A DNA stretch of 63,345 nucleotides, the filler included, from Collodictyon triciliatum (Eukaryota): the NCBI GenBank assembly GCA_043381765.1. It is 11 parts of 11 records of this genome, joined end to end, with 100 filler letters (N's around TTAATTAATTAA, not from the genome) between each part and the next. Parts side by side here need not be neighbours in the genome. Positions count along the whole stretch, not along the records: positions 56,211 to 61,889 come from JBHJMP010004682.1; 10 more parts are not named here. One strand, given 5' to 3'. Shown here piece by piece: positions 3,001-62,106 of this stretch. Under the pieces are notes generated by a model. It saw only the letters and a program-made list of their open reading frames with translations, was not told the DNA's origin and searched no databases. Position 1 is the first letter of the stretch; each line of letters opens with the position of its first letter. A program made the translations under genes and the position numbers.

Positions 3001-4119
3001 TAAACCACTGCCAAGCGCACTAGCCCCTCGTGATAAAAAATTTGGCGACGCTGATTGACTTCTTTCTGTAAACTGAATCGATTCTGTTTTAAATTCAGCG
3101 GAAGACTCTCTAGCGGATTGAGATCTGCCCCGCACAGGAGTTAAAACATTTTCTTCTGTTTTTATCTGAGGGGTTGGGTCTGGGTTAAGTTCTGTTTTTA
3201 TTCGTTCGTCGCGGGGTGGACGTGCAGCAGGCATTTTAAACTGAGGACCTGGAGTTTTTCCGGCATTCTCCTTTCTTTTGCTTTCTAATTCAGCTGCAAG
3301 TCTAGCTGAAGCCTCTACTTCTGAAGAAGTTTGCTCGCTTGATTCTGTTGGTGTACGTGGTGTTAGTGTAGGTTGTTGATAGTTTGGTAGTAAATATGTT
3401 GCCATCTCTTCTCTCCATATATCATACAATTTATTAGCAGATAATTGTGTATTTCCTTTATATCCTATAAGATCTAATAAATGTTTAAAGTAATTTCTAT
3501 AATACACTGGGTCATTGGCTATGTCTGTATCAGAATGTATACTGGTTCGGGCAAAATCAATAACATCTTTTTTATTTTTAAATACCTGTCTGTAATTAAT
3601 TCGCTTAGTAATAAGTTGCAAATAGTCCATTTTTGTTTGTTTTGACTCTCCTGGAGAAAATGTAAAATGAAATTTATTTAACATAGCTTCGAGTTCAGCA
3701 GTTCTAAATTCATTTATATCAAAATATTTTTGTCGGAGTATGCTTGTTATTTGATCCAGAGTTAAATTTGAAACATCTCTAGGTGTTCCACTAGGTGATT
3801 GTTGTGGTTGAGCAAATACTCTAGGACTAGGACCAGCAGAAGCAGGCGCAGAACCAGGCGCAGAACTAGGAGCAGATCTAGGAGCACCCATCGGGTCCTC
3901 ATCATATTCAATATCAAATGGAGCATCTGCAACTATTCTGTTAGCAATAATTCTACCCGCAACGCCCTTGGATGGCCATTTTCCAAATCTTTGATAATAT
4001 AATTCTCTTAAATTGGCTACACGGTCTTTATCTGATAAATCTTTATATTCATCCAGTAATTCATCTCTCACTTGTTCTAATCCCAGGGTTTTAATATCTT
4101 CTTCTGATAGTTTGACCAT
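1..4119 (-). CDS. Very large coiled-coil/low-complexity hypothetical viral protein, at least 1373 aa, 3' end beyond the window start
   Basis: ATG at 4119 (MVKLSEEDIKTLGLEQVRDELLDEY...). The frame is open at every segment I spot-checked down to position 1 (...IAVTLIRRMKGDGALPLKWR). Long E/K/Q/L heptad stretches (e.g. QKANLEQQLQITNNRLTQSI) are separated by P/S/A-rich linkers. It is absent from the ORF track because it has no stop in the window. Confidence 0.8.
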   Translation of the reverse strand, partial: MVKLSEEDIKTLGLEQVRDELLDEYKDLSDKDRVANLRELYYQRFGKWPSKGVAGRIIANRIVADAPFDIEYDEDPMGAPRSAPSSAPGSAPASAGPSPRVFAQPQQSPSGTPRDVSNLTLDQITSILRQKYFDINEFRTAELEAMLNKFHFTFSPGESKQTKMDYLQLITKRINYRQVFKNKKDVIDFARTSIHSDTDIANDPVYYRNYFKHLLDLIGYKGNTQLSANKLYDIWREEMATYLLPNYQQPTLTPRTPTESSEQTSSEVEASARLAAELESKRKENAGKTPGPQFKMPAARPPRDERIKTELNPDPTPQIKTEENVLTPVRGRSQSARESSAEFKTESIQFTERSQSASPNFLSRGASALGSGLLNVSLGAASLVGRGAVATASAVISTARRSLTSQDDTGSEQASVSTQQPAQQPSQQAQSVSTRQPTPVFDTLTQSQLLQAQNNLTEAQKKISAHEAEIKRLKEELQKTNAPGLEQALKGREDELKKLKEEYNKLLEKYQELDKIFTGKMQEVSKLSDENTRKSREIANLKADLENELAIKKQLLEETSAKSTRLTQLERDIKKNEAETTRAKEELKKELDKPKIDPTEFENLKKRVAFLAKQKEDLHRDIKKAYEDIEEFRGELALERDKVRDMDNIQRANNELQADLNRARGSIQTLQQQLQQLQQQQRSPIRGLLISETERTLQQKIATLEREKAQIEANLNTLKTAEDAYKKVIEETDKKLIETEHIFNQRLDEKVKEIEKLTEQIQENEDLIKELKQDPKYRVFVQQLEADHQKFVDILTKKIFDLEGDANLKNRTNDETIGMLNDTITKLQDELAAAKQQQQVAAAPGAPGGSPDSSPDPSPRSAATSPINFPITPRISLEVEKLREIVDRQKTALDALGVTNKTLAAQVSEQGDRLTAANQRAFQLQQDLETANTQKANLEQQLQITNNRLTQSIFISDQEREKIRQAQNEYNRLIKEADEYINNLTERLNELNVQNEQLQEKYDLADARANELQADLNALTVDQQTIQAQISKSNETIGRLQEQLRTEQNKVFVNENRITELRGTIETEKARVQDLYRENADISRELEKKQRDVKRAQEQIESQRAGFENELAAERTAFAAERTALNQVRAADLDLKTQAEARVRDLEGELAQARQQLLVRPQAPLGANRPIVIPGPVREVVRTERVEVPVRGPPIIIPGETREVVREVQVPGPVREVERIVYRNRPAAPAAAPPADNFPGNVMQRNIFTSSTQFAPLPRRGDRRRATGPAPVAASPELVELLDLLNNYINSFLGPRAPDGGLRRNTDLIGGVLAGTDWAQIQDALRAQGMRSLNDITSQPDTLNQLMNSTDTQIAVTLIRRMKGDGALPLKWR

Positions 4120-4155
4120 AATACATTAGCCAATATAAATTTTCTGCGTAATAGT

Positions 4156-6151: not shown

Positions 6152-6251
6152 NNNNNNNNNNNNNNNNNNNNNNNNNNNNNNNNNNNNNNNNNNNNTTAAT
6201 TAATTAANNNNNNNNNNNNNNNNNNNNNNNNNNNNNNNNNNNNNNNNNNNN
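6152..6251. other. Artificial contig-joining linker N44-TTAATTAATTAA-N44; recurs at 12399, 18647, 24895, 31141, 37387, 43626, 49870, 56111 and 61890
   Basis: The same 100-nt spacer, with stops in all six frames, occurs 10 times. Confidence 0.98.
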
Positions 6252-12313: not shown

Positions 12314-12660
12314 TCTTTTTTTCTTTTTTTTCTTTTTTTCTTTTTTTCTTTTTTTCTTTTTTTCTTTTTTTCTTTTTTTCTTTTTTTCTTTTTTTCTTNN
12401 NNNNNNNNNNNNNNNNNNNNNNNNNNNNNNNNNNNNNNNNNNTTAATTAATTAANNNNNNNNNNNNNNNNNNNNNNNNNNNNNNNNNNNNNNNNNNNNAA
12501 AAAAAAAAAACAAAAAAAAAAAAAAAAAAAACAATAAAAAACAATAAAAAACAATAAAAAACAATAAAAAACAATAAAAAACAATAAAAACAATAAAAAA
12601 CAATAAAAAACCATAAAAAACCGTAAAAAACCATAAAAACAATAATAAAAAAAAAAGAAA
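12314..12660. repeat. (TTTTTTTC)n and (AAAAAACAAT)n tracts on either side of a linker
   Basis: Direct inspection. Confidence 0.9.
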
Positions 12661-18646: not shown

Positions 18647-18746
18647 NNNNNNNNNNNNNNNNNNNNNNNNNNNNNNNNNNNNNNNNNNNNTTAATTAATT
18701 AANNNNNNNNNNNNNNNNNNNNNNNNNNNNNNNNNNNNNNNNNNNN

Positions 18747-20045: not shown

Positions 20046-21271
20046 ATAGAATTTTATTATATGTGGAAAATATAATATAGTTAATTTTTTCTTTGTAGTA
20101 ACAGTTTTAAGCACAAATAATTCGCAAAGTAGCATATTCAAATATATTCATGCATTATAATACATCTTATGTAACCTCTTTAACATGCCTGTTCAATGGA
20201 TTGAGCTAGTTATCATAAGCTTAGTTGGTAGCTAACCACGCCGTTCGAAATTCCAGAAATGGATAACAATAATTTTATCCTAATGTAGCAGCAGGACTCG
20301 CTCTGTTGATTTCAACCGCACACCAAATGAGCCCATGAAACAATCGCAGAAAAAGCCCAAATATATGCATTAATAGAAAATATCAAGTTTTCTTAAATAT
20401 ATCACCAATTACGGGTTTAAATAGTTTGATAAAAGGCACGTATCCATATTAATTCAATTTCCATTTTAAGAATACTATATAGACAGGAAAACAAGCGGAG
20501 AGAAAAAGCAAAGCGCGAGTTGACAAAACACAAATTTCCAAACAATTCGACATCCAATGAAAAAGATTCATTTCCATTAGGGAGAAACCTTGTTGAATAA
20601 CACAAGACTCGCGAGAATTGTTTTTTCTAAATGAAATATTCAAAGGAAAAAACCACATAAAAAAGCCAAAGCGAACGCAAACTAAGCGCATTAGCAAATA
20701 TCGAGGCGAACAATCCGAAAACAACGTGATTTCAAAGCCAATCGAACCCGCGGAGATATCCCAGCCATCGGTTCACTCAGCCGTCGATTCTATCGGCCAT
20801 TTCGGTCCTGCGCCTGCACCAAACGAAACGGGAGATTTCAAACATGAGCATCGACCATCAAANNNNNNNNNNNNNNNNNNNNNNNNNNNNNNNNNNNNNN
20901 NNNNNNNNNNNNNNNNNNNNNNNNNNNNNNNNNNNNNNNNNNNNNNNNNNNNNNNNNNNNNNNNNNNNNNNNNNNNNNNNNNNNNNNNNNNNNNNNNNNN
21001 NNNNNNNNNNNNNNNNNNNNNNNNNNNNNNNNNNNNNNNNNNNNNNNNNNNNNNNNNNNNNNNNNNNNNNNNNNNNNNNNNNNNNNNNNNNNNNNNNNNN
21101 NNNNNNNNNNNNNNNNNNNNNNNNNNNNNNNNNNNNNNNNNNNNNNNNNNNNNNNNNNNNNNNNNNNNNNNNNNNNNNNNNNNNNNNNNNNNNNNNNNNN
21201 NNNNNNNNNNNNNNNNNNNNNNNNNNNNNNNNNNNNNNNNNNNNNNNNNNNNNNNNNNAGCTTATGTCATG

Positions 21272-21487
21272 AAAACACAAAAACACAAAAACACAAAAAC
21301 ATAAAAACACAAAAACATAAAAACATAAAAACATAAAAACACAAAAACACAAAAACATAAAAACACAAAAACATAAAAACACAAAAACATAAAAACATAA
21401 AAACATAAAAACATAAAAACATAAAAACATAAAAACATAAAAACATAAAAACATAAAAACACAAAAAACACAAAAAACACAAAAACA
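21272..21487. repeat. (AAAAACAY)n microsatellite next to an internal N gap (20863-21258)
   Basis: Direct inspection. Confidence 0.95.
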
Positions 21488-21544
21488 CGAGTCGCACCCA
21501 AGTGTTTACACGCACTTGCAACCCCAGACAACAGAAGCCGGAGA

Positions 21545-23295
21545 ATGAGCGACGACTCCGCCAAGCAAACGGCGACAGACTTTCTGGGGACCTTTGCCAC
21601 ATACCAGAAGCGCGGACAAAACGCAGGACCAAACACGCGGCCGGCAGCGCGCCTTTCTCTCTCCGAACCAAGTCCATCGCCCGGGCCAAACGCAACGCCT
21701 CCACTGCACTCGCAATCCATTTCGCCCTCAACTTCACCTTCACCTTCGCCTTCGCCTTCGCCTTTGCCTTTGCCTTTGGCCCCAAACAGCACCGAAACGT
21801 CCCCAACACTAATGGGACACGCCGCCGCCTTGACCACGGATCCGGCCCTGCTTACGTCTCTGCCGCTGTTTATCCCGGCCAACGCAACGCTGACCAACAC
21901 TCACTCACTCAAACCACACTTCCGGCGCGTCCACGAAGCCGGGCCGGGCTTTGGTTCGGACTATGACTCGGGCATCGGCGTTGGGATTGGGACTGGGATT
22001 CCGGCTGGTTTGGCTGCCGCGATGGACATCGACCCCGCACACGGAGTCGACAGCGGCAATGCAGACCGGATTGAAGCGGCTGCCGAGTGCAAAGCGGCTG
22101 CGATTGTGCCGATCCTCAAAGTGCCAAAGAAGTGGCCGTCCTTTGCAGAGACCGGCCATCGCGCATCCCATCCGGAAATCCGCATCACAAACGAAGCCAG
22201 TGACTCGGGGTCCGGCGCAGAGACAGACGCAGATGCAGCAGCAAGACAGGCCGATGCCCTTGCCATCAGTCTGCGCAAGGCGAGCGGGCGCTTTCTGGGG
22301 CTGGCCTTGCCCGAACCCATGGGCCATGCAGCAGACTCCGACTCGCACTTGGATCCGAATCAGAGCCCAAGCCCTAGTCCGAGCCCCAGCGTCCGGTCGC
22401 ACCAGCGGGAGATGCAGAGCAAGAATCTTGCTGCAGACGTGACGGATCCACATGAGCTCGGCTCACTTCACCCCACAAACACGGCACCTACAAAAGTGAA
22501 CGCCATTCCAAACCTGAATCAGTTTGATCCATTCCTGAACGCAGCAACCTTTATGGACGAGATTCATTCCGTGGTCTACCCGCTCACAATATTGAATCCA
22601 AATCAGATGTTTCATCAGTACTGGGACATGTTTATGATGATCATCATCCTGTACAACGCAGTCACCATCCCCATGCAGGTTGCTTTCCCAGTGCTCATCA
22701 CCCCGGGCGTCAGGGCCACAGAAATCTTCTTCAACATTTGCTTCATGATTGACATTGTTATCAACTTCCGCACAGCTTACGTCGACAGAGGTGTTGTGGT
22801 GGTGGACGGCCGGCTGATTGCCAGACAATATCTCACCACGTGGTTCTTTGTAGACTTCTTCTCGGCCATCCCGTACGACTGGATCATCGATCAGTTTACG
22901 GAATCAAACAATCTCTCTCGGCTGCCCCGTTTGATTCGCATGGTGCGTTTAATCAGACTCTTTCGGCTGGTGCGCGTCTTTAGACTCGTCAGAGTTTTTC
23001 AAAAGTGGTTTTCGCACATTCGCCTCAATCAACTTGCTCTTCGTGTTGTCAAGCTCGTTTTCATCCTGTTTTGCATATCCCACTACGCCGCTTGCGGTTG
23101 GGTCTTTGTTAGCACCATAGAAGACCCTGATTATACCTGGTGGTCGTTCTACGATAGAAAGACTTACCAGGATAACACAGTCAGCTCTCGATATCTGAGT
23201 GCTCTTCATTGGGCTGTCACCACCATAACGACGGTTGGATACGGGGACATTGTGCCGAAGGTATTACTAAATATAATTGATATAATCATACAGTA

Positions 23296-24894: not shown

Positions 24895-25090
24895 NNNNNN
24901 NNNNNNNNNNNNNNNNNNNNNNNNNNNNNNNNNNNNNNTTAATTAATTAANNNNNNNNNNNNNNNNNNNNNNNNNNNNNNNNNNNNNNNNNNNNAAAAAA
25001 AAGAGAAAAAAAGAGAGTAAAAAAAAGAGTAAAAAAGAGAGTAAAAAAGAGAGTAAAAAAGAGAGTAAAAAAAAAAAAAAGAGTTCTCAC

Positions 25091-31140: not shown

Positions 31141-31240
31141 NNNNNNNNNNNNNNNNNNNNNNNNNNNNNNNNNNNNNNNNNNNNTTAATTAATTAANNNN
31201 NNNNNNNNNNNNNNNNNNNNNNNNNNNNNNNNNNNNNNNN

Positions 31241-37234: not shown

Positions 37235-39412
37235 ACTCGACCTCCCCTTTTTCTTATTTCTTTTCTTTTTTTTTTCCTTTTTCCTTTTCTTTTTCTTTTT
37301 TCTTTTTCTTTTTCTTTTTCTTTTTCTTTTTCTTTTTCTTTTTCTTTTTCTTTTTCTTTTTCTTTTTCTTTTTCTTTTTCTTTTTCNNNNNNNNNNNNNN
37401 NNNNNNNNNNNNNNNNNNNNNNNNNNNNNNTTAATTAATTAANNNNNNNNNNNNNNNNNNNNNNNNNNNNNNNNNNNNNNNNNNNNTTATTGCTTTTTTT
37501 ATTGCTTTTTTTATTGCTTTTTTTATTGCTTTTTTTATTGCTTTTTTTATTGCTTTTTTTATTGCTTTTTTATTGGGGTTTTTATTGGGGTTTTTATTGG
37601 GGGTTCGCCTCCGGTTCTCCATCTATGAGTTGGAGACGTTGCGATAAACAATCGATTTGAGGCCTTGTGCAATCATTGGTAACTATTGTATGCTTTTGTG
37701 TGTGAATGTTACGAGTTGTTTCTGCTTGATTGATTTGATTGCCTGTTTAAAGAAGAAAAAAAAAAGAATTCTACTTCATCAGACTAATCGTGATTTTCCG
37801 TATCGAAACCGTGGTGCAGCATGGGATACCAATTCACTCGATGTGTTACGTACACTGGTTCTTTGATACGAAAAGACCACGTGACTGTAAGATATACTAA
37901 TACTATGCTCGAGATTATGATTAATATACAAATATCAGTCTCCTACTCGAGTTTGCTCTCTAGCATACGCACCTTTGTCTCCCCTTGTATAGTTTAGCCC
38001 TGTGGCACTTCGAATCGAATGAAGGAGGGGGGAAAACATTCAGATATCAACATGCACAACTCGCACGAAATGAAAAGAAGAGAAAAAAGGGGTAAGATAA
38101 CACGTACAGTTTGAATTTATACAATAATAAAAAAAAAAAATCGATTTGAAGAAAGCGAATAGCCTTGATGCTTTTGATGTTGTTCACGAAATGGATTGCG
38201 AGGCACTCAGCTACAAAGTTGAAGAGGAGCGAGGCCAGCTGGCAGCCTTGGTAGACGCTGCTTTGTCTCTGCATTCTATCTGCAGGGCCGTATGCAGTCA
38301 TAATCCTGATTGTGGTGACCATAGCTGAGGGCCCTTCCACGTAAACCTGGTAAATTGGGTCTCGGCGCTCTGCCACGCCTCTTCTCTTGAAGATAGATGT
38401 TATCCGCGTGGGTGAAAAAGGCTGTCCTGTAAACCACTTTCTGTCTTTGGGGTTTTTAATCCCTAGCGTTCCGCGACAAAACGCCGAAACACTTGGTCTG
38501 TTTTTAGAGAGCGGGGGTAAAAAAAAACATATGTGAGAGTAACAACACAATCATCTTGTCCAATTACGTTTGCAGATATCTTTGTGTTGGCTCTAGTGTC
38601 TTCTCCTACTCGCGTTTGCTCTCTCCCATGCGCTCCCATCCCGCCCCTTTGTATGGCATAACCTCGCTACACTTTGAATCGAATAAAGGAAAAAAAAAAT
38701 CTTTGTGTTGGCTCAGTAGTGAGGATAATGGGTGCATCTGTGGCGATGGTTTCAGTCGATGTTGTTGCATATGCTTCCTCAAGGTGCATCCCTCGGATCT
38801 TTTGGTGATGATAATTTCTTTGTGATATTAATGGAGGTCACTAAGGCCTCCCCTATAGGAAGCTGTGTGCTTTGCGCAGCGCGACAAGAAAAAGAAAGCT
38901 TCAAGGGCTGATTGCCTTCCAGCCTCTTGCAATCCTTCCGTAAGAGCACCACCCGCCTTCGCACTTTGACGAATTGCAGAATCGAACCCACTGCGAGCTA
39001 CTTCCAGAAATGAGACATACCTGCCACAAATATTATCACATTTGGTATGATTGCTTGTATACAACTTGTTTCAAATATGGAAAATAATATAATATATACA
39101 TATTGGTTTCAAATTTTAATATAATTATCTATCTTAATACAATTCAATATAAAAAATTAACAAGCACTTGATTATATATAACCAAAAGCTTCCATGAATC
39201 CGTTACTGGCAGCCGCATCCAGCAAAGCGTTACAACCGCCAGGTGGCACCACGCGGAAAAATCCGTAACGGCCACATCACGCTATTTATAGCCCAGCTTC
39301 ATATATAGCCGGCTTCGCTTTGAAAATATCCTTCTCTAGCACATCACTCATTATCACAAAGCAACACAACCCAAGCCACGAACCAAGCAAGCAACACCTT
39401 CGGTACGCCTAA

Positions 39413-40840
<1,428 letters not shown>

Positions 40841-41128
40841 GCCTGCCTCTCCGGATGGCCGCAGTACATACGAGAACGCGTGTACGTGCCTTTTGACGTG
40901 AGATCCCAACCCCAAACCGTGCCCGCTTCGGTGGCAAAGGAGACCAATGCGTCCCGAATAAACATACCACACCTGGATGAAACCAAAACCGAAGGGCGTA
41001 GCGCGGAGCCGCCACACATCTTGACTGACTCCGAATGGGAGAACGTTTATATAAAAACCAAAATCCCCTGCCAGCTGTCAGGGGGTGACTGGGAACGAAA
41101 GTGACAGGTGACAGCGCGCAGGGTTTTA

Positions 41129-43418
41129 TCACTCTGTGGCGCCACTGATCAGCGCCATCAGGAAGCGGGCCTGATACGGATCGAAGCGGAAGGGGCTCTC
41201 CAGCAAGTCTCTGTACTCGATGCCGAGAAACTCGGCGCCTGTGACTCCGACCTCCCTGAAGCGATCCAGAATGGCCCGGCCCGCATTGTTGGCGTGGAGA
41301 TACGCGACAAGGCCGCCCGAGTCCAGGCCTTTGGGCCCCTGCTTGGCAAGTCCTTGAGGCTCCATCACGCGGGCCAGCTCCATGTCGACTTGGGTGGCGG
41401 TGATGCGCTTTTCATAAGCGGGTTCCCAGCACGCGCGAATCAGAGTCGCCAGCCTGGGCGGACAGGAGGCCGGGATGAGAAGGGAGTTGCCGGTCATGAC
41501 TCTGTGGCCGATTACGCGCGATTCAAGGCCTTCGTAGGGATACTCGCCGGCAAGCATCGACCACATGACGACTCCGAACGAGTACACGTCAGAGGGGAGA
41601 CCAGCGCTCTTGCCGTAGTCAAAGACTTCGGGTGCTGCCCAGTGTTTGGAGCAGATCAAACTGGAGTCTGAGTTGACCGAGACGCCGCTCTTGGAGACCC
41701 CAAAGTCTGACAGCTTGGCCACGCCGTTGACGAGCAGGATGTTTTCGGTCTTGAGGTCGCGGTGCTGGATGGGCGGGGTGGTGGTGTGGAGATAGGCAAG
41801 GCCCTGGATGATGTGCTTTCCAAACCTCATGGTCAGCTCGTTGCCCAGGGCCTTGACCCTTCGAATCAGCGAGCGCAGGTCGCCCCCGTCTGCAAACTCC
41901 ATCAGCATGAGCAGGTCGTTGCCCCGGTAGCCAAAGTCCAGGAGGGCCAGGATGTTTGGGTGGCGTAGGGCGAGCATCATGTAGCCTTCTCTCTCCGCCT
42001 CGAGCGACCCCAATTGCCGGGCCACGAGGGCATCCGAGATTTTCTTGACTGCGTAGTCTACCGACTTGAGAACCACCCGATATGCGGTGCCGAACCCGCC
42101 TTTGCCGAGAAAGTTTTCGGGCTTTTCAAAGTCGGTGGTGAGGATGTCGCTGTACATCCCAGGGGTGAATCTCTTTGGCCCTGTTGCTTCGGTGATTATT
42201 ATTATTATTATTATGTTCGTTCCAGAAAAAGTGCGCGTTAGTAGATAATATAGTAGTTACATGGGAAAGATATCAGGCTGGTGTCTATTTCTAAGGGAAA
42301 AGATTGGGAAGAATAAATCACGCAAATGGAAATATAAGTTATTTTTTTCTTTCTAACCAGAGATTGGCTGCTGCATGGGATAATTGGCAGTGGGGGATAT
42401 TAAGTTAGATTTTATCGTTCGAATACATAAAAACAAACAAACAAACAAACAAACAAACAAACAAACAAACAAACAAACAAACAAACAAACAAACAAACAA
42501 ACAAACAAACAAACAAACAAACAAACAAACAGTCTGAGTTAGTTGTTGGGATACGTTATCAATGGATGAATCAATGGATCATATAAAGCGAACTTTCTCT
42601 TTTTTCTTTTTACAGATACTTTTTTTTTAAGTAGTATTACTGGCTCGTACAGCTGCAGAGTCCTCAAAGCTTGTGCGATTGTTAACTTCATATCTCCCTT
42701 TTTCGGGTCCGTGTGATTGTTCCAACAAGGCAAGTTCGTAATTCCGCTGGGGGCTCTCTTAATGGTCACATTCCCGTTCAGTTCCATGTAGATGTATTCA
42801 AGATTGACCAGTGCTGTTACATGCTGCGGAAGTTCTTGTATCTGCGTTTATAGGGAGAGGGCTTATCAATACACGACCTTTTATCTTGCATCTATTTTCG
42901 ACCACAAGCGCAATCTTCAATGTGCTTCGCAAACATATTCATATATATGCAGCGATGTAATCGCATACCAAATTACCGCGAATACTCAGATGCTCGAGAG
43001 CTGTCAGGCAGGATATCTCCAGCTGCAGTGTTGCCAGTCGGTTCTCTCGAATGCTCAAGTCTTTGACCTTTGTCAAGCACGATATTCCCCTTGGAAGTGA
43101 CGTCAGGCTATTTCCTCGAGCTTCTATCCTTACAAGACTTGTCAACAGGGATATCTCTGAAGGCAGCGATGTCAGCTTATTTTCAGAGACGACTAGCTCC
43201 ATCAGACCCATCAACCGCATTATTTCTGAAGGCAGAGACGAAAGCTGGTTGTTGGAAAGGGACAATCGGACTAAACGGGTCAAGGCAAAAACACCGAGCG
43301 GCACAGACGTCAGGTTCTTGAAGGAGAGTTTCAGCGTCGTGCGGTTTCGGAGTGTGGCCTCATCCGGATCGCCGATCAGCTTTTGCAGGTCTTTGAGACG
43401 TGCAGGGTTGTCTGACAT
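41129..43418 (-). CDS. Leucine-rich-repeat + TKL-type protein kinase + SAM-like tail, spliced
   Basis: LRR exon with LxLxxNxLxSLPxEI repeats (42960-43418), a linker exon near 42650-42850, and a kinase exon (GKGGFG, YAVKK, HRDLKTEN, DFG, WAAPE, SDVYSFG). A helical C-terminal ~65 aa resembles a SAM domain. Confidence 0.8.
42430..42531. repeat. Intronic (AAAC)n
   Basis: Direct inspection. Confidence 0.95.
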
Positions 43419-43725
43419 TGTCACGAGGGGTTGGACCGGAGTCTGGAAACTGCGCGACTGGCGGGGCTGCGGTGGGTGAGGAAAACAGAGGCCGTGAGCA
43501 CTCTGGTGCGCTCCTGGAGCTTTATTTTTCTTTCTTTCCTTTCCTTTCCTTTTTTTTTTTTTTTTTTTTTTTTTGTTCGGGTGGTTTTTTTTTTTTTAAT
43601 GAAATAAAAAAAAAAAAAAACAAAANNNNNNNNNNNNNNNNNNNNNNNNNNNNNNNNNNNNNNNNNNNNTTAATTAATTAANNNNNNNNNNNNNNNNNNN
43701 NNNNNNNNNNNNNNNNNNNNNNNNN

Positions 43726-49317: not shown

Positions 49318-49969
49318 TTCTGTTTTTGCCGTGTTTATTGGGCAACCCACGCGGCGCACGATGCTCAAGATGTCTGTTGTCTCGTGGGTGATATGGTGAG
49401 GCCTTGGCAAAAGCAACGCGGACTTGATGTTTGGGTGATTATCGTTGATGACAGGGCGAGAAAAGAGACAAAGACAAAGATAATCAAACCACAAACGCGA
49501 GCTTATCAATCAAAAAGGCTGGTGTGCGGTTCTTGAGATGAGTTGGGTAAAATTATGTCGCAATCTTTTATGATTGAAATATAATATTTTCCAGATTATT
49601 TTTTTAATTATGGAATATACAATAATTATCTTATAAATCATGAAGCTATTATTCAATTGGTATTGTAATATATATTTGCATCACACATCATCATAGGAGC
49701 ACAAATATGTGGCTTCTTCGATTGTAAACACAGGAGGTGTGTGTTGAAGCCACAAGCGAGAATTATATGCACCAGTGTCTGGTTTAGGCTGGCACTAAAA
49801 TTTCCACAAATATATAAATATTTGTCCAATTCAATAAAAATCATCTATCCTGATGTTCCAGATATATAANNNNNNNNNNNNNNNNNNNNNNNNNNNNNNN
49901 NNNNNNNNNNNNNTTAATTAATTAANNNNNNNNNNNNNNNNNNNNNNNNNNNNNNNNNNNNNNNNNNNN

Positions 49970-50139: not shown

Positions 50140-53100
50140 CCTGGAATGTAAGAGTGCAGATCATTCAGTGGATTACGATTTTTCTAAATAATAGTTCAAA
50201 AGTTAATAGATGATTTCTGACATCCAATTATGCTAAAATCTTACGTCAAATCCACCATACACATAAATATGATTGTCGACCCGGCCACATATCGCCCCAA
50301 TAACATGACTATTTTCATTTGTACTCTTTTTTCTAGTCCACGTATTGTTATTTGGGTGTATATGATAGACACTCGAGTCTGGCACTTCAGTCCGTCCACC
50401 AATCATAACACCATAGGTATCCATTCCGATGAGACAGAACTGTATCCTTGGTCTAGGGATATCTCCAGAGAAATCATCTTGCTTCCAAACAGACTCAACT
50501 ATTAACCCATATATGTATTGAGTAATTCAGAAATAACGATAGAGAACACTATAGTATTATTTAATAGGTACTCACCCGGACTTGTCGTTGAGTAAATGGC
50601 AGACATTTTGTGATATTTTGAAAAATCATCGATATTGACCGATAGACTCCCACCAAGTGCAAATACGGTCGATCCTATAGAGCAGCCTCCACCGTACACC
50701 ATGGGAGGTAGTTCAATAGAGAGCTCAGCCATCTCACTTGGTCGTATCGCGCCGATGTCTATTTTTTTATGCGCGTATGTGTGTTTAGATGAATTTGAAG
50801 CAAAAAGGAAGTATTATCGAAATTCTTACCTAAAGTTTGATGTATTTTTGATTTCTGGTAAATGCAACTTGTCTGTTAAATTAAAATTAGGGGGAGTTTC
50901 TAAATGGGAGAAAATCAATGAAACGTGATACGTTATCGCTCATTAAAAGAATATCAGAATTTACCTGATTGCGATTCGGTTGTAAAGACATGCCAGGACA
51001 AGCTATGCAGTCTCCACGGAAATTAATATACCGGTTTTCGTCACAGTAGCACCCATCCAAATTTGCCAAAAAGCCTTTGTTACACGCTGTAATGATTGAT
51101 TTATTCAGAATAAAAGACTGCTTTTATTGAAAAAGAAAAGGAAAACGGATTGAGTATCCTTACAGAATAATTTCATAATGAAGCCTTGGTCTGGTTTAGC
51201 ATCAGAGGCTACGCGGAACCTCAGTCTGGAATTTGAGGATGGTATTTCAATCAACGAACTCTCGTTTCTCAAGTCAATTTGTACCTGAAATATCAATTGT
51301 TAAATCTCCTATAGTACCACGAAAGAAAAGAAATATAATCGACGAGATGCTTATTACTAAATTGGATAGCTGCGAGCCATAAGTAATATTCTTGTCGCAG
51401 CTTGATATTGTTTCAATGGTTAAATCTGCTCCTAGGCCCAGTTTTAGGTTCTCAATCTTTTAAATATTATAAAAGTTAATTTATTTTAGTAAAATCTCAG
51501 GCTGAATCAAGGAGACATGTATTATGGGTCAATTAAAGGAGTGTCGTTCTGAGCTTACCACAATATAGTTCGCATTACGGATTTCCCAGATGCAATTCGT
51601 ACCAGGGAAATAGAGAAAATCTCCACTCCCATCGCTTAAAGTCACGTTTGAGCTACTGATATATACAGTTCCATAGCACCATAGCTCGTCTGTCACAAAA
51701 TTATGAATAATTCAAAATATAAAACATGCAGTAAATAGTTGAATATGTAATTATTTAAAATTTAAAGTAAATATAAAAAAGTAAGACAGTTGTTCCGAAA
51801 AAAAAATTCACGATTTCATTTACACACATATTTCGTTACGAGTTATCATGAATATAAAACTGTATAGTTCTCAATAAGTTACCTATTCTCAATGAATACA
51901 CTGAATTCATGGATGCACCTCTGGAGTTCATTCCTCCAAATATGAAAATATGCCCAAAGGCAATAGTTGCCGAAGAATAAACAAGGGGTGGCGGTACTCG
52001 TGGCTGTTTTACAATCCTTTGCCACAATCGACTCTGAACTAGTAATCAAATATATAAACAACTTCTTAAAATTATGATTTTTTCCCAAAAAAACAACAAC
52101 TTGGTCTCGAGATTACCGTCATGAATCCAGAATTCATTCACCCGAAGACCTTCTTCGTCGATACCTCCATAAAGAAACAAGCTAGTGGAATATCCAATCA
52201 CCACCGGCTGGTCAGGTACTCCCAAGGGTACATTACTTATGTTTTTCCAAGCACTTAAACCTAATAATCGTAGAAGTTTAGATGACTTTAATTGACTTTA
52301 TGTAAATAGTTTCGAGTGGGCTTAATCGACTAAAACTAACTTTCATCGAAACAAAGTATCTCCCTTTGTCTTTCGACAACGATATACGTATTCACGAAAC
52401 AAAAATCAGTATTTATTATTATTCCTTTTGTCCCATCTAAGAATTTAGTTTTTGAAGCGATTTTTCTGTTGGAAAAGCTTTCTGATCTCATATCAAAAAC
52501 GAGTATGGACTCTTCAGAGGCGAAGCCATCAGATGAATTCCTTCCACCCCATATGTAAATTGTAGAACCTTTCGCTACATTCGTAGTCGAGAATCTCATA
52601 TAGTGTGAGAGAAAAAAGGGAGCACATTTGCAATCTGAAGACCATAATCTTGTTTCTAATTTGGTTGGTTCGAGTCAATAAATATAATTTTTTTTTCTCA
52701 AAACGAATCCCCTGGTTTTTTTTTTTTTTTTACAAACCTATGGAAAATTTTCTGAATATCAATCCGCTGTGTCCTTCATAGAATCCCCCAAGGAGGAAGA
52801 ACGTATTGTTATAATAACTGAAGGCCTGTCCATTATTTTTAATAAAAAGAAGAAAATATTTTACCCACACAGTTTACTTGTTTTAACTTATGTAAATACC
52901 GACGGCATGTTGAACTGCAGGTGCACAATTCATATCGCTCGGTCGACATATAGATTCCTCACACATTTTGATCCATTTTTGTGTAACTGTAATTGAATAT
53001 GTCAAGGTCTTACATAGGAAAACATTTCACGTACATGAGGAAAAATAAGATTAGAAAAAAAAAGCATCCAAAAAAGAAATAACCTGTAACATAAACCCAC

Positions 53101-55285
53101 AAATCATTGATGGGTTGCTTCTCGTAATATGTTAATCCACCAAACATGGCAATTCGTTTTTTGTCAAGGACTGCTAAATGAGAAAAACTTCTACCAATAG
53201 GGTATCGGGAGAGACTGCTATCGGTCCAGTTTTTTATATCTTCACAAAAGTTTTCCGTTAATAAAAGATAACAACAACATTCATTCATGCGATGAAAGGT
53301 TATTATGGATGTTATTTTGATTTCTGCGCGGTTGATCTATACCTGTATCGAAAACCCAAAAGTCATTAAGTCTTGCATGGATATTACCTCCAAAAAGGTA
53401 TAGTTTATGTCCCACTGAGGCCATGGCCGAGTAATATCTCCTTGGAGGAGTTTTTATCGGGTATGTACTGGTATAGTTTGCATCGGGAGACTCGATAACA
53501 TTCATAGATATGTTTTTTTCTACATGATTATGAATTACTGGCGGGACACGTGTCTTCTACTGAACCATTTATAGTGATAGATAATTACTTACGAATATCT
53601 ATGATATTTAGGTCTCCGATTGACTTGAAGAATCCTATATAGTGAACTCCTCCAAAAACGTAAAACTTATCTCCCAAAACCACAGCTGAACCATACACAA
53701 TACCTTTTTTCTCGTCGAATGAGTGAGGTACACCCCACATCTCAGTTGCTGTATAAAAAGGAATTAAATAGGAAAGTGCAATTACATTAATAACAAGTCA
53801 AAAGAAAGGTCCATACTCAAGTTGTAAGTCCAAAATCCTGGAGTGAAGTAGTAATTTGTGTCACATCCGCTGTATATTACGAGTGAGTCCTTATATAAAC
53901 CCATTTGACTATACATCAAATTTGGGACATTCTTGGTATTTTCAGCCTTAGCTCTGATTTTCTTCCATTTTCTTGAATCTATTTTTAACGTGAAGCCAGA
54001 CATAGGGAATTTATGGATGCATAAAAATGAATGGCATTTCCTTGAATGAATATTTCGATTTAGATTTAAACAATACTGAAATCAAACACCCAGAATGCAG
54101 ACTCCATGTAACCATTATTTCCTCCGAAAACATAAATCTTGTTCTGATAAATACTACAGCTCATGGTATTCATCGGATCTGGTACATTGGTCGACTCATA
54201 ATCAATTATTTTCCATGAGAATGATGTCAAATTAAGTGAGTAAAGGTCATTGAAATCAACAAGTCCAGCCCACGAACGACCACCAAAGACATACACCTGT
54301 TAGACAAATGACGATACTAAAACGTTAGATGTATCTATTTGATTAATATCTCTCTTGGAAAAGCCTTAGGAGGGACAGAGGATTTATCAGACCCAAAAAG
54401 TAGAAAAATAAATAAAAAAATTATGTTCAGAAGGTTAAAAACAATAATAAAAATAAGAATATTTTGCAACATCGCCACGAAAATGACCTCATTCCCTGCT
54501 CTCGACGCACAATAAAAGCTTCTTCTCTCAGGAATGTCTCCGGTGGTATGATTGAAACTCCAGAGAGAGCTTGCTACAAAAATTTAATATCACAAACCAA
54601 GTAATCAATAAAGATAATTTTATTGAGATATGAGACAGCCGGGAAAAATGTTTTATTGTCATAAAACCATATTTAAAATGAATTGTTTTGAGTAAGATTA
54701 TAATTCTAAGATATCTGGGGATACTTGAGTTAAAAATCCAAATTGGATCCATCATCGGTCTTCGCGATTGATATTCTTGATTCGTTCTTTTTTCATGGAT
54801 TAAGGCACTTAGGTAGAGCGAAATGAACGAGACTGTGTTTAGATATTCACACATGTAATATAAGAAAATACCCGTCACCAAGAAGGTAGATAAGGGTTCC
54901 GTCCGACACAACCGAAGCACCATAAAAAGAGACCGGTTCATCAGACGCAAAGCGCCAGTCTGCCCCATACGAATATGATGAATTAAAGATCAATTAGATT
55001 ACCAATGTTTTCAATTGAAAATACATGAAATGTTAGTTGCAACTTTGGCACTACATTTCTGTAGACAAAATGAGCTTTCCTCAAGAAAGAAAAGATGGTT
55101 AAGTTATTTGCCAAAAGTTCGTATATATATATCAATATTGTCAAAGATTGATAAAGAAAGACCAAGAGAATAAAAACAGAAGAGAGCGAAAGCTAACCTC
55201 CAACGGCCGATGTTTGGGCAGATACAGCCCCCAGATGACAGAGACAAAGCATGATCAAAACGAAAAGCATCCTGGATAGCTTCAT
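50140..55285 (-). CDS. Secreted or surface Kelch-repeat protein with a CUB-like domain and a Cys-rich segment (attractin/MEGF8-like architecture), 3' truncated
   Basis: Signal-peptide-like start MKLSRMLFVLIMLCLCHLGAVSA. Many YVFGG/LYLFGG...NDxWxxD Kelch blades. CUB-like SDGSGDFLYFPGTNCIWEI...LRFRVASD..PDQGF. C.KGF..CYC...CIACP, then more Kelch blades. Confidence 0.75.
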
Positions 55286-56110: not shown

Positions 56111-56210
56111 NNNNNNNNNNNNNNNNNNNNNNNNNNNNNNNNNNNNNNNNNNNNTTAATTAATTAANNNNNNNNNNNNNNNNNNNNNNNNNNNNNNNNNN
56201 NNNNNNNNNN

Positions 56211-56700
56211 TTTTTATTCTTTCTTTTTATTCTTTCTTTTTATTCTTTCTTTTTATTCTTTCTTTTTATTCTTTCTTTTTATTCTTTCTTTTTATTCTTT
56301 CTTTTTATTCTTTAGTCTTTTATTCTTTTTATTCTTTTTATTCTTTTTATTCTTTTTATTCTTTTTATTCTTTTTTATTCTGTTTTATTCTGTTTTATTC
56401 TGTTTTATTCTGTTTTATTCTGTTTTATTCTTTTTATTCTTTTTATTCTTTTTATTCTTTTATTCTTTTATTCTTTTATTCTTTTATTCTTTTATTCTTT
56501 TATTCTTTTATTGTGGCAATATTTCATGTTTTTCCTCTGCATCGACTTTTTATTATTATTATTATGATTATTATGATGACTATGATTATTATGATTATGT
56601 TTATTATGTTTATTATGTTTATTATGTTTATTATGTTTATTATGTTTATTATGTTTATTATGTTTATTATGTTTATTATGTTTATTATGATTATTATTTT
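56211..56700. repeat. (TTTTATTC)n-type and (TTTATTATG)n simple repeats upstream of the TRIM-like gene
   Basis: Direct inspection. Confidence 0.9.
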
Positions 56701-56728
56701 GATAAATAGCCACCGTAGCAGCCAAACA

Positions 56729-59700
56729 ATGGAGAGTGAATGCAACTGCCCAGGATGTGGAAAAACTTTCGAAGATCCGCGCATTCTCCCTTGCAAACAC
56801 GTTTATTGCGTGACCTGCGTCAGAGATATGAGCAAAACACCCATCGACTTTCTAGACCAAAGCAAAGGAACGAAGTCGTGTTGCTTTCTGTGCGAAACTG
56901 GATTTACACTCCGCAATGGTGATCCGAAGTCCCTCCCTCAGTCAGAAAAGCACTTGGATATTGTGGAGACTTACAAGAAGGCGCCAACTTTCGTGACTTT
57001 CAAGTGCGATGAGCATCCTGAGAAAGAAGCAGTGAAGAGGTGTCTGAGTGGCTGTGACCATATTTGCGAAGATTGTGTTTCCGCTCATAAAACTTTAAGG
57101 CTACTGAAACCCCATAAACTTGTGTGAGTTTTATTTTATATTTATATATTCTACGCTTTTTCATAACTTTCCAGATACTTTTATTTCTTTGTTTCGAATG
57201 TCAAGATATAATATATTATTGCATCTTTTGTTTAATTTTTACTTCTGTTTACATAAATAAATAAACTCAGTGATGTGGACAAATCGAGGCCAGTTGTTTT
57301 TGATACTGCGTGCCCAGAGCATATGCAACCCTTCACAGAATTCTGCCCAAAAGAAAGCTCGGAGAATCCTTTCATGTGTGCAATGTGCATCGGCCAGCAT
57401 TTAAAACAAGTTGGAAAGTGCGAACATGGGGAATTCAGCACGGGTGCTCAGAAAATTTGTAAAGATTTAGGCGATAATAAAAAGAAGATGGACGAGCATA
57501 ACAAATCCACTGCAACCTTAGTGAACAAAATCGAAGAAAAGCAGACTGAGGTACGCGAAATTCAATCATGGACATCTACACATTTCTTGATTTCATGACT
57601 TCAGCATTTCATGATGGAACTCTTTGCATGTAAGGTTGAAAATTACATCTCGAACTTGAAGAGCAAGGCCAAAGAGGAGTTTGAAAAAATAAGAAAGGTA
57701 GTAGATGAGGAAGAGCTGCGATTTATGGAAAAGGTATGTGTTCATTTCAGCTTACTTTTATGCCAACGTAAATAATGCGATTATAAAATGACCTATCGAA
57801 TATTTCAACAGATTGACGCCTTCCACAAAAAAATCATATACCCATTTTCTACCATGGGAGGGCATCTGAAATTCTTGAAGGAGCATTTGCAACATTCAAA
57901 TAAATTTGTGGATGAATCAATTAAAGTATTTGTTGAAGGAAAATCCCCAGTTAAACTTCCTCTTGCTAAAAGAACCTCGATTTCGGTGTTGTCGAAAAAA
58001 ATCCCTACGATACCCGAAAGCTTTGCTGAATTTGCTGAAACCGTGCCATCATTCACTTTTACTGAGACAAAACCTGGAGATATACGACCTCCTGCTGCGG
58101 TGTTCACTGAGTTAATTTCATCCTCCTCTGAAGCCCCATTGAGACAGTATTCATCATGTGAGCCTGAGTTACCTTCATCAGAATCAAAATAGACCCTCAT
58201 CTAAACAAGCTCTCCAATTCAAAGCTCATTCATCGCGCCAAGCTCGACTTCATGGGCCCAAAGCTCAACCCACACAAGCAGCACGTTCACAGGTGAACTC
58301 ATTATGTAAACATGTCAGTATATAATTGCCCATAATTCCTTGAAACACAACTCCTGAATTTCAACGATGGGTTGGTGGCATAAACACTGAAGGAGGTAAC
58401 ATTTTAATTTATAAATACGTTAATGGCTGAATATTCAAAAATCAATGTTCTCTAGCTCTTTTATCTTGATATACACAATTTATGTTTTAACCAGATCCTT
58501 TTGACAACCATCAATTTTTTTCTGTTTTAAAAACCTTTCCTCTAATAACTATTTTGCATTTTTTTTAAGGGTGTAAGTTTCATTTTATCATGATGTTATA
58601 TTTACATATTGTTGAAGTCATATTACATCGATGGTGTTGATGTTTCTGTGGAATTATATCGGTGTGAGCTAAAATGGAATATATGCCTGAATATCGTGAC
58701 AAACTTGGTGAAATCATAGGTGGTAAGTTTATTATTCCTGGAAAAAGAATAATTCTATTTAATTGTTAGATAATATGATCTCTATTTTCAATTAGAGATG
58801 CATAACTATGTTTATAAGATATAAGTGTTAACCGATTCATATGAATACACTATGATGAAATATTCATATAATTTCTGTGTCTGATACGTGTATAATCATA
58901 GCAAGTAATTTTTATTCTGTTTTAAGATACGATAATTTGCTAAAAATAAACATATTCGGTTGTAAATACGAGACGCATAATTATGTATACAAGATATAAG
59001 TGCTAAATAATTCATGTGAATACATCATGATGCAATATTCATATGATTTCTGTGCCTGGTATGGTATAATCATAGAAAGTAAGTCTTTATTCTCACGAAA
59101 GATAAGATAATATGATATGATATGCATAATTATGTATACAAGAAATAAGTGTTAACCGGCACATGAGAATACACCGTGATGCAATATTCATATGGTTGCT
59201 GCGTCTGGTACATGTATAATCATAGAGAGTAAGCCTTTATTCTCACGAAAGATAAGATGATATGAGATGATAAAAATAAACATACATGTTCGTTTCTAAT
59301 TATGTGATGCATAATTATGTATATAAGAAATAAGTGTTCATTGACACATGTGAATGCACCATGATACAATATTCATATGATTGATGTGTCTGGATTGCAT
59401 AATAATAGGTTGTAAGTTGTTATTAGTCTTGAGAAATAAGATAATACGAGATAATAAATAGAACCATATTCGTTTCTAAATGTGTGATGCATAATTATGT
59501 ATATAAGAAATAAGTGTTAAGCGGCATATGTGAATACATCATAATGCAGTTTCATATGATTGATGTCTCTGACATTTATAATCATAGCTTGTAAGTTGTT
59601 ATTAATCTTAAGGGATAAGACAATACGATATGATAAAAATAAACATATTCCTTTGTAAATATGAGATGCATAAGTATGTATGCAAGAAATAAGTGTTAAC

Positions 59701-61752
59701 TGGCACATGTGAATACATTTTGATACAATATTCATATGATTGATGTGTCTGGATTGCATAATAATAGGTTGTAAGTTGTTATTAGTCTTGAGAGATAAGA
59801 TAATACGAGATAATAAATAGAACCATATTCGTTTCTAAATGTGTGACGCATAATTATGTATATAAGAAATAAGTGTTAAGAGGCATATGTGAATACATCA
59901 TAATGCAGTTTTCATATGATTTATGTGACCGACATGTATAATCATAGCTTGTGAGTTTTTATCCCTCTTGAAAGATAAGATTATATGAGATGATAAAAAT
60001 AAACATATTTGGTTGTAAACATGAGATGCTTCATTATGTATACAAGAAATAAGTGTTAACTGATTCATGTGAATATGCCATGATGTAATATTTAATAGAT
60101 TCTGTGTCTGATACGTTTGTAATCATAGCCTGTAAGTTTTATTAGTCTTGTTAGTTATATAAAATGAGATGGTGAAAATAAACATAATCCTTTGTAAATA
60201 TGAGAAGCATAATTATGTTTACAAGAAACAAGCGTTAACCAACACATGTGAATACACCATGATGTCATATTTAATAATTTTTGTCTGATTTTTGTTGATA
60301 ACCATAGGCAGTACGTTTTTTCACTCTTGAAAGACAAGATATTATGAAATGCTAAAAATAAACATATTCGGTTGTAAACATGAAATGCATAATTATGCAT
60401 ACAAGAAATAAGTGCTAAATGAAGCATGTGAATACGTCATGATGCAATATGCATGTGATTTCTGTGTCTCATTTTTCTGTAATCATAGTTTGTAAGTTTT
60501 TATTTTCTTGAAAGATAAGATAATGCAAGATGATAAAAAGGACCATAAATTCCTTTGTAAATATGGGATGCATAATTATTTATACAAGAAACATGTGATA
60601 ACTGACACATGTGAATACACTGTGATGCAGTACTCATATGATTGAGTCTGATATGTGTGTAATCATAGGACGTATGTTTTTATTTCTATTTAATCGTTAA
60701 ATTACGTGAGATGATAAAAAGGACCATACATTCCTTTGTAAATATGGGATGCATAATTATGTATACAAAATATAAGTGTTAACCAACACATGTGAATACA
60801 CTGTGATGCAGTACTCATATGATTGTTTCTGATATGTATACAATCATAGCAAGTAAATTTAATTCTCTTGGAAGACAAGATAATAAGATATAAAAATAAA
60901 CTTATTAATTTGTAAATATGTTATGTATGTTTATGTATACAAGAAATAAGTGTTGACTGACACATGTGAATACAATATGATGCAATATTCATATGATTGC
61001 TGTGTTTGGTACGTATATGATCATAGATTGTAAGTTTTTATTCACTTGAAGGTTAAGATAATATTATATGCTTAAAATATACATATTCAGTTGTAAACAT
61101 GAGATGCATAATTATGTATACAAGAAATAAGTGATAAATGATTCATGTGAATACACCATGATGCAATAATCATATGATTGAGTCTGATATGTGTATAATC
61201 ATAGAAAGTTTGCTTTCATTTGTCTTGAAAGAAATATATAATATAATATTAGATGATAAGATAAATATATTCGTTTGTAAATATTTGATGCACAACTATG
61301 TACATAAATATAAGTGTTAACTGAGACATGTGAATACACCATGATGCAATACTCACATAATTTCTGTGTCTGTTTGTGTATAATCATAGTTTGTAAGTTG
61401 TTATTCTCTAGAAGATAAGATAATATGAGATGATAAATATACCCATACATTCGTTTATAACTATGAGATGCATAATTATGTATACAAGAAACAAGTATTA
61501 ACAGACACATGTGAATGAACCATGATGCAATACTCATATGATTTCTGCATTTGGTACGTGTATAATCATAGCTTGTAAGTTTTTATTCTCTAGAAGATAA
61601 AATAATATGAAGTGATAAAAAGTTAACATATTCGTTTGCTAATATGAGATGTATAATTATGTATATAAAATATAAGTATTCACAGACACATTTGAATATA
61701 CCATTATGTAATATTCATATGATTGAGTCTGATATGTGTATAATCAAAGAGA
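56729..61752 (+). CDS. TRIM-like RING + two B-box + coiled-coil protein, predicted to continue through a chain of 3-nt micro-exons; 3' end missing
   Basis: RING (CPGC..PRILPCKHVYCVTC..CFLC), B-box-like CDEH..C..C.HICEDC..AH..H and CPEH..FC..C..C..H, then coiled-coil exons. Approximate exons 56729-57122, 57271-57550, 57635-57733, 57812-58157 and 58225-58292. The RBCC part is secure. The extension past 58157 is inferred; unspliced, the frame stops at 58192. Confidence 0.75.
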
Positions 61753-61779
61753 GTAAGTTGTTATTAGTCTTGAAAGCAA
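58723..61779 (+). repeat. Tandem array of 17 complete diverged ~180-bp units (one shortened to about 150 bp) plus a truncated one; each unit has the form of a GT...AG intron plus a 3-nt exon
   Basis: Consensus gtaagtttttattctcttgaaagataagataatatgagatgataaaaataaacatattcgtttgtaaatatgagatgcataattatgtatacaagaaataagtgttaactgacacatgtgaatacaccatgatgcaatattcatatgatttctgtgtctgatacgtgtataatcatag-NNN. Confidence 0.95.
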
Positions 61780-61889
61780 TATGTTATGTTATGTTATGTT
61801 ATGTTATGTTATGTTATGTTATGTTATGTTATGTTATGTTATGTTATGTTATGTTATGTTATGTTATGTTATGTTATGTTATGTTATGT
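61780..61889. repeat. (ATGTT)n microsatellite that truncates the 180-bp array at the contig end
   Basis: Direct inspection. Confidence 0.95.
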
Positions 61890-61989
61890 NNNNNNNNNNN
61901 NNNNNNNNNNNNNNNNNNNNNNNNNNNNNNNNNTTAATTAATTAANNNNNNNNNNNNNNNNNNNNNNNNNNNNNNNNNNNNNNNNNNNN

Positions 61990-62106
61990 CGAATCCTTGT
62001 TCTTGACAACGGGCAGGTGGCTGAGTTTGAGCAACCGGAGCGACTTTTGAGCTCGAAAAGCGGCATCTTTTTCAACCTCGCCCGGGAGGCTGGCCTTGCA
62101 AGCTAA
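61990..62106 (+). CDS. ABC transporter subfamily C (MRP-like), extreme C-terminus
   Basis: RILVLDNGQVAEFEQPERLLSSKSGIFFNLAREAGLAS*. Confidence 0.85.
   Translation, partial: RILVLDNGQVAEFEQPERLLSSKSGIFFNLAREAGLAS

Follow-up and report, generated by a model that had tools for sequence, protein, structure and literature searches.

A tandem array of ~180-bp units with splice-site-like ends and variable triplets between them inside a predicted RING/B-box gene in Collodictyon triciliatum

Is a tandem repeat whose every unit begins with GT and ends with AG a satellite that happens to resemble introns, or a series of introns that has come to resemble a satellite? The question is raised by a locus of Collodictyon triciliatum (assembly GCA_043381765.1). 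The window analysed here is a stretch of 63,345 nucleotides (nt) joined from 11 parts, and the locus lies in the part at positions 56211-61889 (JBHJMP010004682.1), in a gene predicted to encode a RING/B-box (TRIM-like) protein. The locus is a real tandem array of ~180-base-pair (bp) units that lies within the transcription unit of this gene in sense orientation, and each unit is separated from the next by three variable nucleotides. The reading favored here, tentatively and at a little under even confidence, places an intron-like element at the start of the gene's next exon, where it would have been amplified in tandem along with three neighbouring bases, and holds that splicing removes the resulting array.

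A preliminary description of this DNA listed 19 junctions of the form AG-NNN-GT (N is any nucleotide). The pattern holds at 19/19 junctions, which are spaced 150-185 nt apart, and all of the stretches between triplets (18/18, comprising a first stretch called unit 0 and 17 repeat units) start with GT and end with AG. The donor is GTAAGT at 12 of the 19 junctions, in agreement with the earlier statement that this form predominates. GTRAGT occurs 12 times on the plus strand of the array and once on the minus strand, and the plus strand is that of the gene. Tandem Repeats Finder (TRF) assigns 59115-61776 a period of 180 (14.8 copies, 75% matches), and a period of 359 scores equally well. A profile built from 16 units matched 17 units over 58811-61793 and, weakly (E 0.005), part of a unit at 58708-58808, so that the array as a whole extends over 58708-61793; the profile matched nothing in 58293-58707 and gave no match with E<1 in the remaining ~57 kilobases (kb) of the window. 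Because of these matches, the junction at 58720 is taken as the first of the array and the junction at 58570 as lying outside the repeat, which bears out the preliminary description on this point.

The features of the array follow one another on the plus strand. The first triplet, GGT (58570-58572), is the probable start of the next exon and lies within a 7-letter match to a related transcript. Unit 0 (58573-58719, 147 nt) starts with GTAAGTTT and ends with AATCATAG; these two ends are all that it has in common with the repeat, and its interior shows no detectable kinship to it, as judged by profile search alone. The second triplet, GTG (58720-58722), forms the first junction of the array. The 17 repeat units (58723-61749) are 147-182 nt long from GT to AG, with one triplet between each. 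The last triplet, AGA, is followed in the sequence by the first 27 nt of another unit (61750-61779), and a (TATGT)22 microsatellite (61780-61889) closes the part, whose end thus falls within the array. N runs and a linker follow (61890-61989), and the sequence beyond 61990 is unrelated to the array-bearing part.

Conservation along the unit was scored in an alignment of 16 junction-centred units (178 columns) from which the degenerate first unit was dropped. Invariant columns number 45/178, including the A, T, A and G before the triplet and the G and T after it, and 76 columns are at least 90% conserved. Pairwise identity in the triplet columns is 0.23, 0.33 and 0.43, compared with 0.76 for the mean column, and no other 3-column window of the unit scores as low as the triplet (0.33, with the next lowest at 0.425). 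The earlier expectation that AG and GT would be conservation maxima, with the minimum at the three nucleotides between them, is therefore correct. When the three triplet columns are left out of the unit tree, they require 7, 6 and 5 changes on it versus a mean of 1.85, and five or more changes are required in only 11/170 columns.

The units also have the shape of introns. Each opens with a consensus 5' splice site and closes with ...ATCATAG, and the lengths are comparable to those of the gene's introns (147-182 nt versus 54-277 nt). Before the AG, pyrimidines make up a share of 0.40-0.75 in the units and 0.45-0.75 in the introns; the reference set for this comparison is only five introns of the same gene. 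The preliminary description noted a branch-point-like motif in many units, but CTRAY is found 10-40 nt before the AG in only 8/18 units.

Transcript data come from contigs of two small runs from related organisms A and B (X1 and X2; shares 0.09 and 0.07), the only listed runs that contain related sequence, aligned at an 85% likeness threshold and 85-99% alike to the window. The kind of these runs ("RNA?") is a guess, and the contigs are taken to be RNA because they contain GT..AG joints. Bins of the array without contig cover carry no information. A spliced contig matches the window through 58293, one base beyond the last upstream exon (58225-58292), and then continues with 80 other letters, 30 of which are displayed (AGGGTGTGCCTGCTCGATATTCTCAATCTC). 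The first seven of these loose letters equal window positions 58568-58574 (AG plus five bases, at the first junction), and this is the sole such match at offset 0 in the part 56211-61889. In shuffled sequences a 7-letter match arose by chance in 92/200000 cases at the first junction and in 1221/200000 at any of the 19 (~0.0005-0.006); among 1534 real 30-mers of the gene, three matched at the first junction and nine at any junction. Identity between transcript and window breaks off exactly at the start of GTAAGT. The continuation of the related transcript is absent from the window at up to three mismatches.

Other contigs of the relatives are unspliced across 58273-58396, after which they carry 41 other letters in place of 58397-58612; they resume over 58613-58730, including the GTG at 58720-58722, and then run into the repeat. 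Both the array and the place where it begins are therefore common to the relatives. Among the loose ends listed, two contigs pass from the repeat to unlike sequence, that of X1 at 60128 (directly after ...CATAG) and that of X2 at 59228 (3 nt later). The sequences after these two boundaries are not in the window at up to three mismatches and do not match the related transcript.

The sense orientation, the unit lengths, the ends of unit 0, the break at GTAAGT and the CATAG boundaries together point to an intron-shaped element as the unit and to 58570 as the probable start of the next exon. The array probably begins 3 nt into the exon following exon 58225-58292. In the favored reading, an intron-like element would have come to sit at the start of that exon, and the element with its three flanking bases would then have been amplified in tandem, including duplications of several units at once. 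The spliceosome would take the array out of the transcript, either as one intron or stepwise. The triplets would be a spacer between intron copies rather than a designed coding cassette, and most of them would not be retained.

The relationships among units bear on how the array grew. Sister units with identical triplets are found three times (GTT/GTT, CTT/CTT and AAA/AAA, with support of 99, 94 and 81). This agreement between sisters means that each unit was copied along with its triplet as the array grew, and part of this growth would have proceeded in two-unit blocks. Noise added at the junction with each duplication was considered as a source of the triplets and is ruled out for recent growth, since sister units share them.

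Evidence for splicing of the units is indirect, and a number of observations weigh against the removal of an amplified intron by splicing. One pair of sister units, 60489 and 60669 (support 85), differs at 3/3 triplet bases (TTT versus GAC), which hints at a multi-base replacement at the triplet; these two units differ by ~23% overall. The variability of the triplet exceeds the expectation for a neutral spacer and is unexplained by a model of tandem introns. Conservation extends to the whole of ATCATAG and to several other blocks, beyond what splicing needs, and CTRAY lies 10-40 nt ahead of the AG in just the 8/18 units given above. A selected donor would favor G before GT, as in the consensus, whereas the base preceding GT is G at only 1/19 junctions. 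The array also contains 17 occurrences of another conserved in-frame pair, AG-N6-GT, which shows that such pairs arise in the 180-nt unit anyway. As for the contigs, they come from relatives, their nature as RNA is guessed, and their homology to the window at the first junction spans 7 nt and was spotted post hoc. They pass the junction at 58720 and others unspliced. The sequences beyond the two CATAG boundaries are unlike the continuation of the transcript, and other loci are therefore involved. No joint listed among the relatives' contigs excises a unit, though the aligner cannot place 3-nt exons, and the joints within the array (58730>60324 and 59058>59939) are jumps between repeat copies that are not GT..AG.

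A serious competitor is an ordinary AT-rich satellite in an intron or the 3' flank of the gene, in which AG and GT are two among many conserved dinucleotides, the triplet is but one of several variable patches, and an intron-like phase has been chosen by the observer. This explanation is considered unlikely, but it keeps a considerable share of the probability. The conserved columns lie in several blocks rather than at the junction alone, columns 142, 26 and 83 likewise require 6-7 changes on the unit tree, and AG-N1-GT recurs 13 times in the array in addition to the AG-N6-GT pairs. The triplets have the base composition of the repeat (G+C 15/51, like the repeat's 27.5%). The preliminary description stressed that no triplet is a stop codon; this is true of 19/19 but not significant, with P ~0.14 for 19 triplets and ~0.3 for 12 independent values. 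Contigs of the relatives cross junctions unspliced, and the feature was picked from a very large scan, in which a rare coincidence is expected. Coincidence accounts less well for a related transcript that matches the first junction and parts from the window at GTAAGT, for a unit 0 that retains only the two ends, and for repeat-to-unique boundaries of the relatives that coincide with CATAG or lie 3 nt beyond it in 2/2 cases among the loose ends listed. The triplet is moreover the single lowest window of the unit and stands between invariant columns, and strand and position agree with the gene.

The break inside the next exon could also have been made by a repeat-bearing insertion near the start of that exon. 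The gene copy would then be truncated, the satellite would be its 3' untranslated region or flank, and the spliced transcript would come from a paralogue. This is judged improbable. It draws on the fact that homology to the transcript ends after five exon bases and on the unspliced reading from 58570, which reaches a stop after seven codons (TGA, 58591-58593). The unspliced contigs are also deeper (27.9 over 58273-58396 and 34.7 over 58613-58730) than the spliced contig (16.6 and 7.7), and a second family of contigs departs from the window at 58126, from which paralogues are taken to exist. An insertion leaves unexplained, however, the consensus donor at its start, the unit-like end of unit 0 and the GTG that follows unit 0 as it does in the transcript. 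The spliced and unspliced contigs are equally distant from the window (12/183 and 8/124 letters differ, respectively), which fits one locus better than two.

The preliminary description proposed instead that each unit is a short intron of its own and that the triplets are one-codon exons, joined with or without skipping into a chain that is translated as a variable insert. All of the evidence for intron-shaped units counts here as well, as do the constant 3-nt spacing without a stop, the phase 0 end of exon 58225-58292 and the hypervariability of the triplet; the short introns of the gene would make recognition unit by unit plausible. Taking out unit 0 and the array's first unit at GT..AG lengthens the match to the related transcript from 7 letters (unspliced) to 9, which cover the first two triplets and one base more, but the two extra letters have a 1-in-16 chance of matching. 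The related transcript reads GGTGTG after exon 58225-58292 and then leaves the window's triplets for letters that look like the Ser/Ala/Gln/Arg-rich coding sequence of that exon. No contig of the relatives shows the predicted chain of the window's triplets or the excision of a unit, and junctions are crossed unspliced. The composition of the triplets is that of the background, changes are most numerous at the first codon position (7, versus 6 and 5 at the other two), and the lack of stops is not significant. This cassette has a very slight chance of being correct. Only a little less slight is that of its fullest version, in which each 180-nt unit would be excised singly to leave a run of at least 19 3-nt exons coding a fast-changing insert in a disordered linker of the RING/B-box protein, with the excess variability of the triplets due to selection or to a splice-linked mutation process. 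Combinatorial skipping of triplets as a means of varying a protein is pure inference.

That the units are introns retained as hosts of small RNAs (box C/D small nucleolar RNAs [snoRNAs] or mirtrons) is almost certainly wrong and was rejected, since the weak matches of six units to the C/D-box family RF04330 (25-34 bits) fall below the gathering score of 80 bits, the C-box and D-box positions of the model face letters that do not form boxes by the box consensus, only about half of the units contain CTGA, and the consensus fold (-2.74 kcal/mol, 12 pairs) lacks a terminal stem. A coding repeat on the minus strand was likewise rejected; its frames do not exceed 127 amino acids (aa), the longest was reached in 20/500 simulations, and the three longest frames have no Pfam match. 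On the minus strand of 58723-61779 the three frames show a similar shortage of stops (53, 44 and 44; 141 observed versus ~195 expected), which looks like a trinucleotide bias rather than coding.

Several known systems resemble the array in part. A tandem duplication at an exon-intron boundary gives extra copies bounded by GT..AG that splicing can remove, as in the potato RNA-dependent RNA polymerase gene (PMC4974935). The Collodictyon array, as read here, works most like this tandem genomic duplication, but differs from it in having at least 17 copies, a fixed 3-nt spacer and a satellite-like arrangement, and its origin by duplication is presumed. Introners are transposons that create introns and are reported in only two animal groups (PMC9860276). 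Like Introners, the units are intron-shaped, the relatives' repeat ends at CATAG beside unlike sequence, and the break lies inside an exon. Unlike Introners, the units are arranged in tandem rather than dispersed, with no copy in the remaining ~57 kb of the window. No inverted pair joining the unit ends was found in the 3/18 units examined for terminal inverted repeats, and target duplication is lacking in that no two adjacent triplets among the 19 junctions are identical.

The micro-exon genes of Schistosoma contain exons of 3-81 bp between long introns (PMC10526429). Like the triplets of the array, these exons have lengths divisible by three that go down to 3 bp, and skipping them keeps the frame. 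They are backed by complementary DNA, their introns are long and unrelated, and their products are secreted proteins, whereas in the array a single repeat supplies all of the "introns", the host encodes a RING/B-box protein and the triplets are known from genomic sequence alone. At the ratchet points of Drosophila (10.1101/006163, PMC8605326) an acceptor likewise lies beside a strong donor and long intronic sequence is removed stepwise. There are no bases between AG and GT at a ratchet point, compared with 3 nt at 19/19 junctions here, and each recursive step would therefore leave a codon. AG directly abuts GT four times in the array, in no case with GTRAG, and the AG abutting GTRAGT of a ratchet point does not occur in it. 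The SNORD115/116 arrays (PMC3413130) also consist of tandemly repeated introns in one transcription unit, but each of their introns carries a box C/D snoRNA, for which the present array gives no support, and ordinary non-coding exons stand between them. A limited search of the literature for tandemly repeated introns or Introners in tandem returned only snoRNA host arrays and single duplications among the papers listed, which is too little to call the array undescribed.

Satellite DNA is made up of monomers with conserved and variable segments. The array is like a satellite in its head-to-tail ~180-bp AT-rich units and its partial two-unit higher-order pattern, and it goes beyond the concept in its position at an exon start, its sense orientation and its splice-site termini. 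A scan of metagenomes with a pattern internal to the repeat that avoids the junction gave 14 loci with one match each and no array, which was read as chance.

If the units are spliced, the locus would represent tandem amplification of an intron, or of an element that generates introns, within a gene. It would then link satellite DNA, intron gain and stepwise or micro-exon splicing, topics that are usually kept apart, and would provide a natural test of the spliceosome on acceptor/donor pairs 3 nt apart, many times over. If the units are not spliced, the locus is a cautionary case in which the conserved columns of a satellite convincingly mimic splice signals.

The gene upstream of the array was assembled from five exons on the plus strand. 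Exon 1 runs from its ATG over 56729-57123 and has Pfam matches to zf-RING_UBOX, zf-C3HC4 and zf-B_box, on which the predicted identity of the gene is based. Its joint to exon 2 (57123>57271, GT..AG, side 151) is found in a contig of X2. Exon 2 (57271-57550) has its 5' joint in that contig, and its 3' end is placed at the only open GT..AG combination, which likewise gives the probable start of exon 3 (57605-57733). The end of exon 3 follows the "cut +2" reading of the joint 57731>57810 (GT..AG, side 99), which is found in contigs of the relatives. Exon 4 (57812-58157) is bounded by the joint 58155>58225 with two other letters (X1 and X2, side 69) and has the donor GTGAGC at 58158, ahead of the TAG at 58190-58192. 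Exon 5 (58225-58292), which the preliminary description had marked as an exon, is thus real in the related transcripts; it is matched by the relatives' contigs over 58225-58293, ends in phase 0 and has the donor GTGAAC at 58293. The spliced frame is open for 406 aa through 58292. An intron-like, non-repeat stretch of 277 nt (58293-58569) without a match to the repeat profile follows and ends in T8AAG, which leads to the first triplet.

The GT..AG joints in contigs of two relatives argue that the gene is spliced, that the TAG at 58190 is intronic and that the transcript extends at least 80 nt beyond 58293. The possibility, raised earlier as a refutation of the one-codon exons, that transcripts end at this TAG is thereby set aside, since the TAG lies in an intron that is spliced out in the relatives. 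A second contig in both related runs departs from the window after 58126, and an unspliced related contig has 255 unlike letters ahead of 58256, which suggests paralogous copies of the 3' part of the gene in the relatives. Protein searches with exon 57812-58156 (longer, near lengths) and with exon 56729-57121 (longer) found no relative.

The 11 parts of the window are mostly ~6.1 kb long and are separated every ~6.2 kb by filler linkers, each consisting of 44 N, TTAATTAATTAA and another 44 N. In the first half of the window the linkers lie at 6152-6251, 12399-12498, 18647-18746, 24895-24994 and 31141-31240; in the second half they lie at 37387-37486, 43626-43725, 49870-49969, 56111-56210 and 61890-61989. 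Parts start or finish in microsatellites, and the genes of neighbouring parts are unrelated. There is also a run of 396 N at 20863-21258.

Other coding features are present in the remaining parts. Beyond the linker that follows the array, and in a different part, an open frame at 61990-62106 (37 aa) ends in TAATGA and has no Pfam match; we take it to resemble the C-terminal end of an ABC transporter. At the other end of the window, a frame of 1375 aa on the minus strand (1-4125) is open off the window start and has only a weak Pfam match of coiled-coil type. An ion-transport channel frame lies on the plus strand at 21449-23293. The region 39413-43595 is rich in G+C (0.61 at 40001-42000) and unlike the rest of the window in composition; it contains an intronless tubulin frame (39413-40837, plus strand), a protein-kinase frame (41132-42256, minus strand) and leucine-rich repeats (42942-43595, minus strand). 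On the minus strand at 50236-54299, a run of short exons codes for beta-propeller repeats of the Kelch/attractin type.

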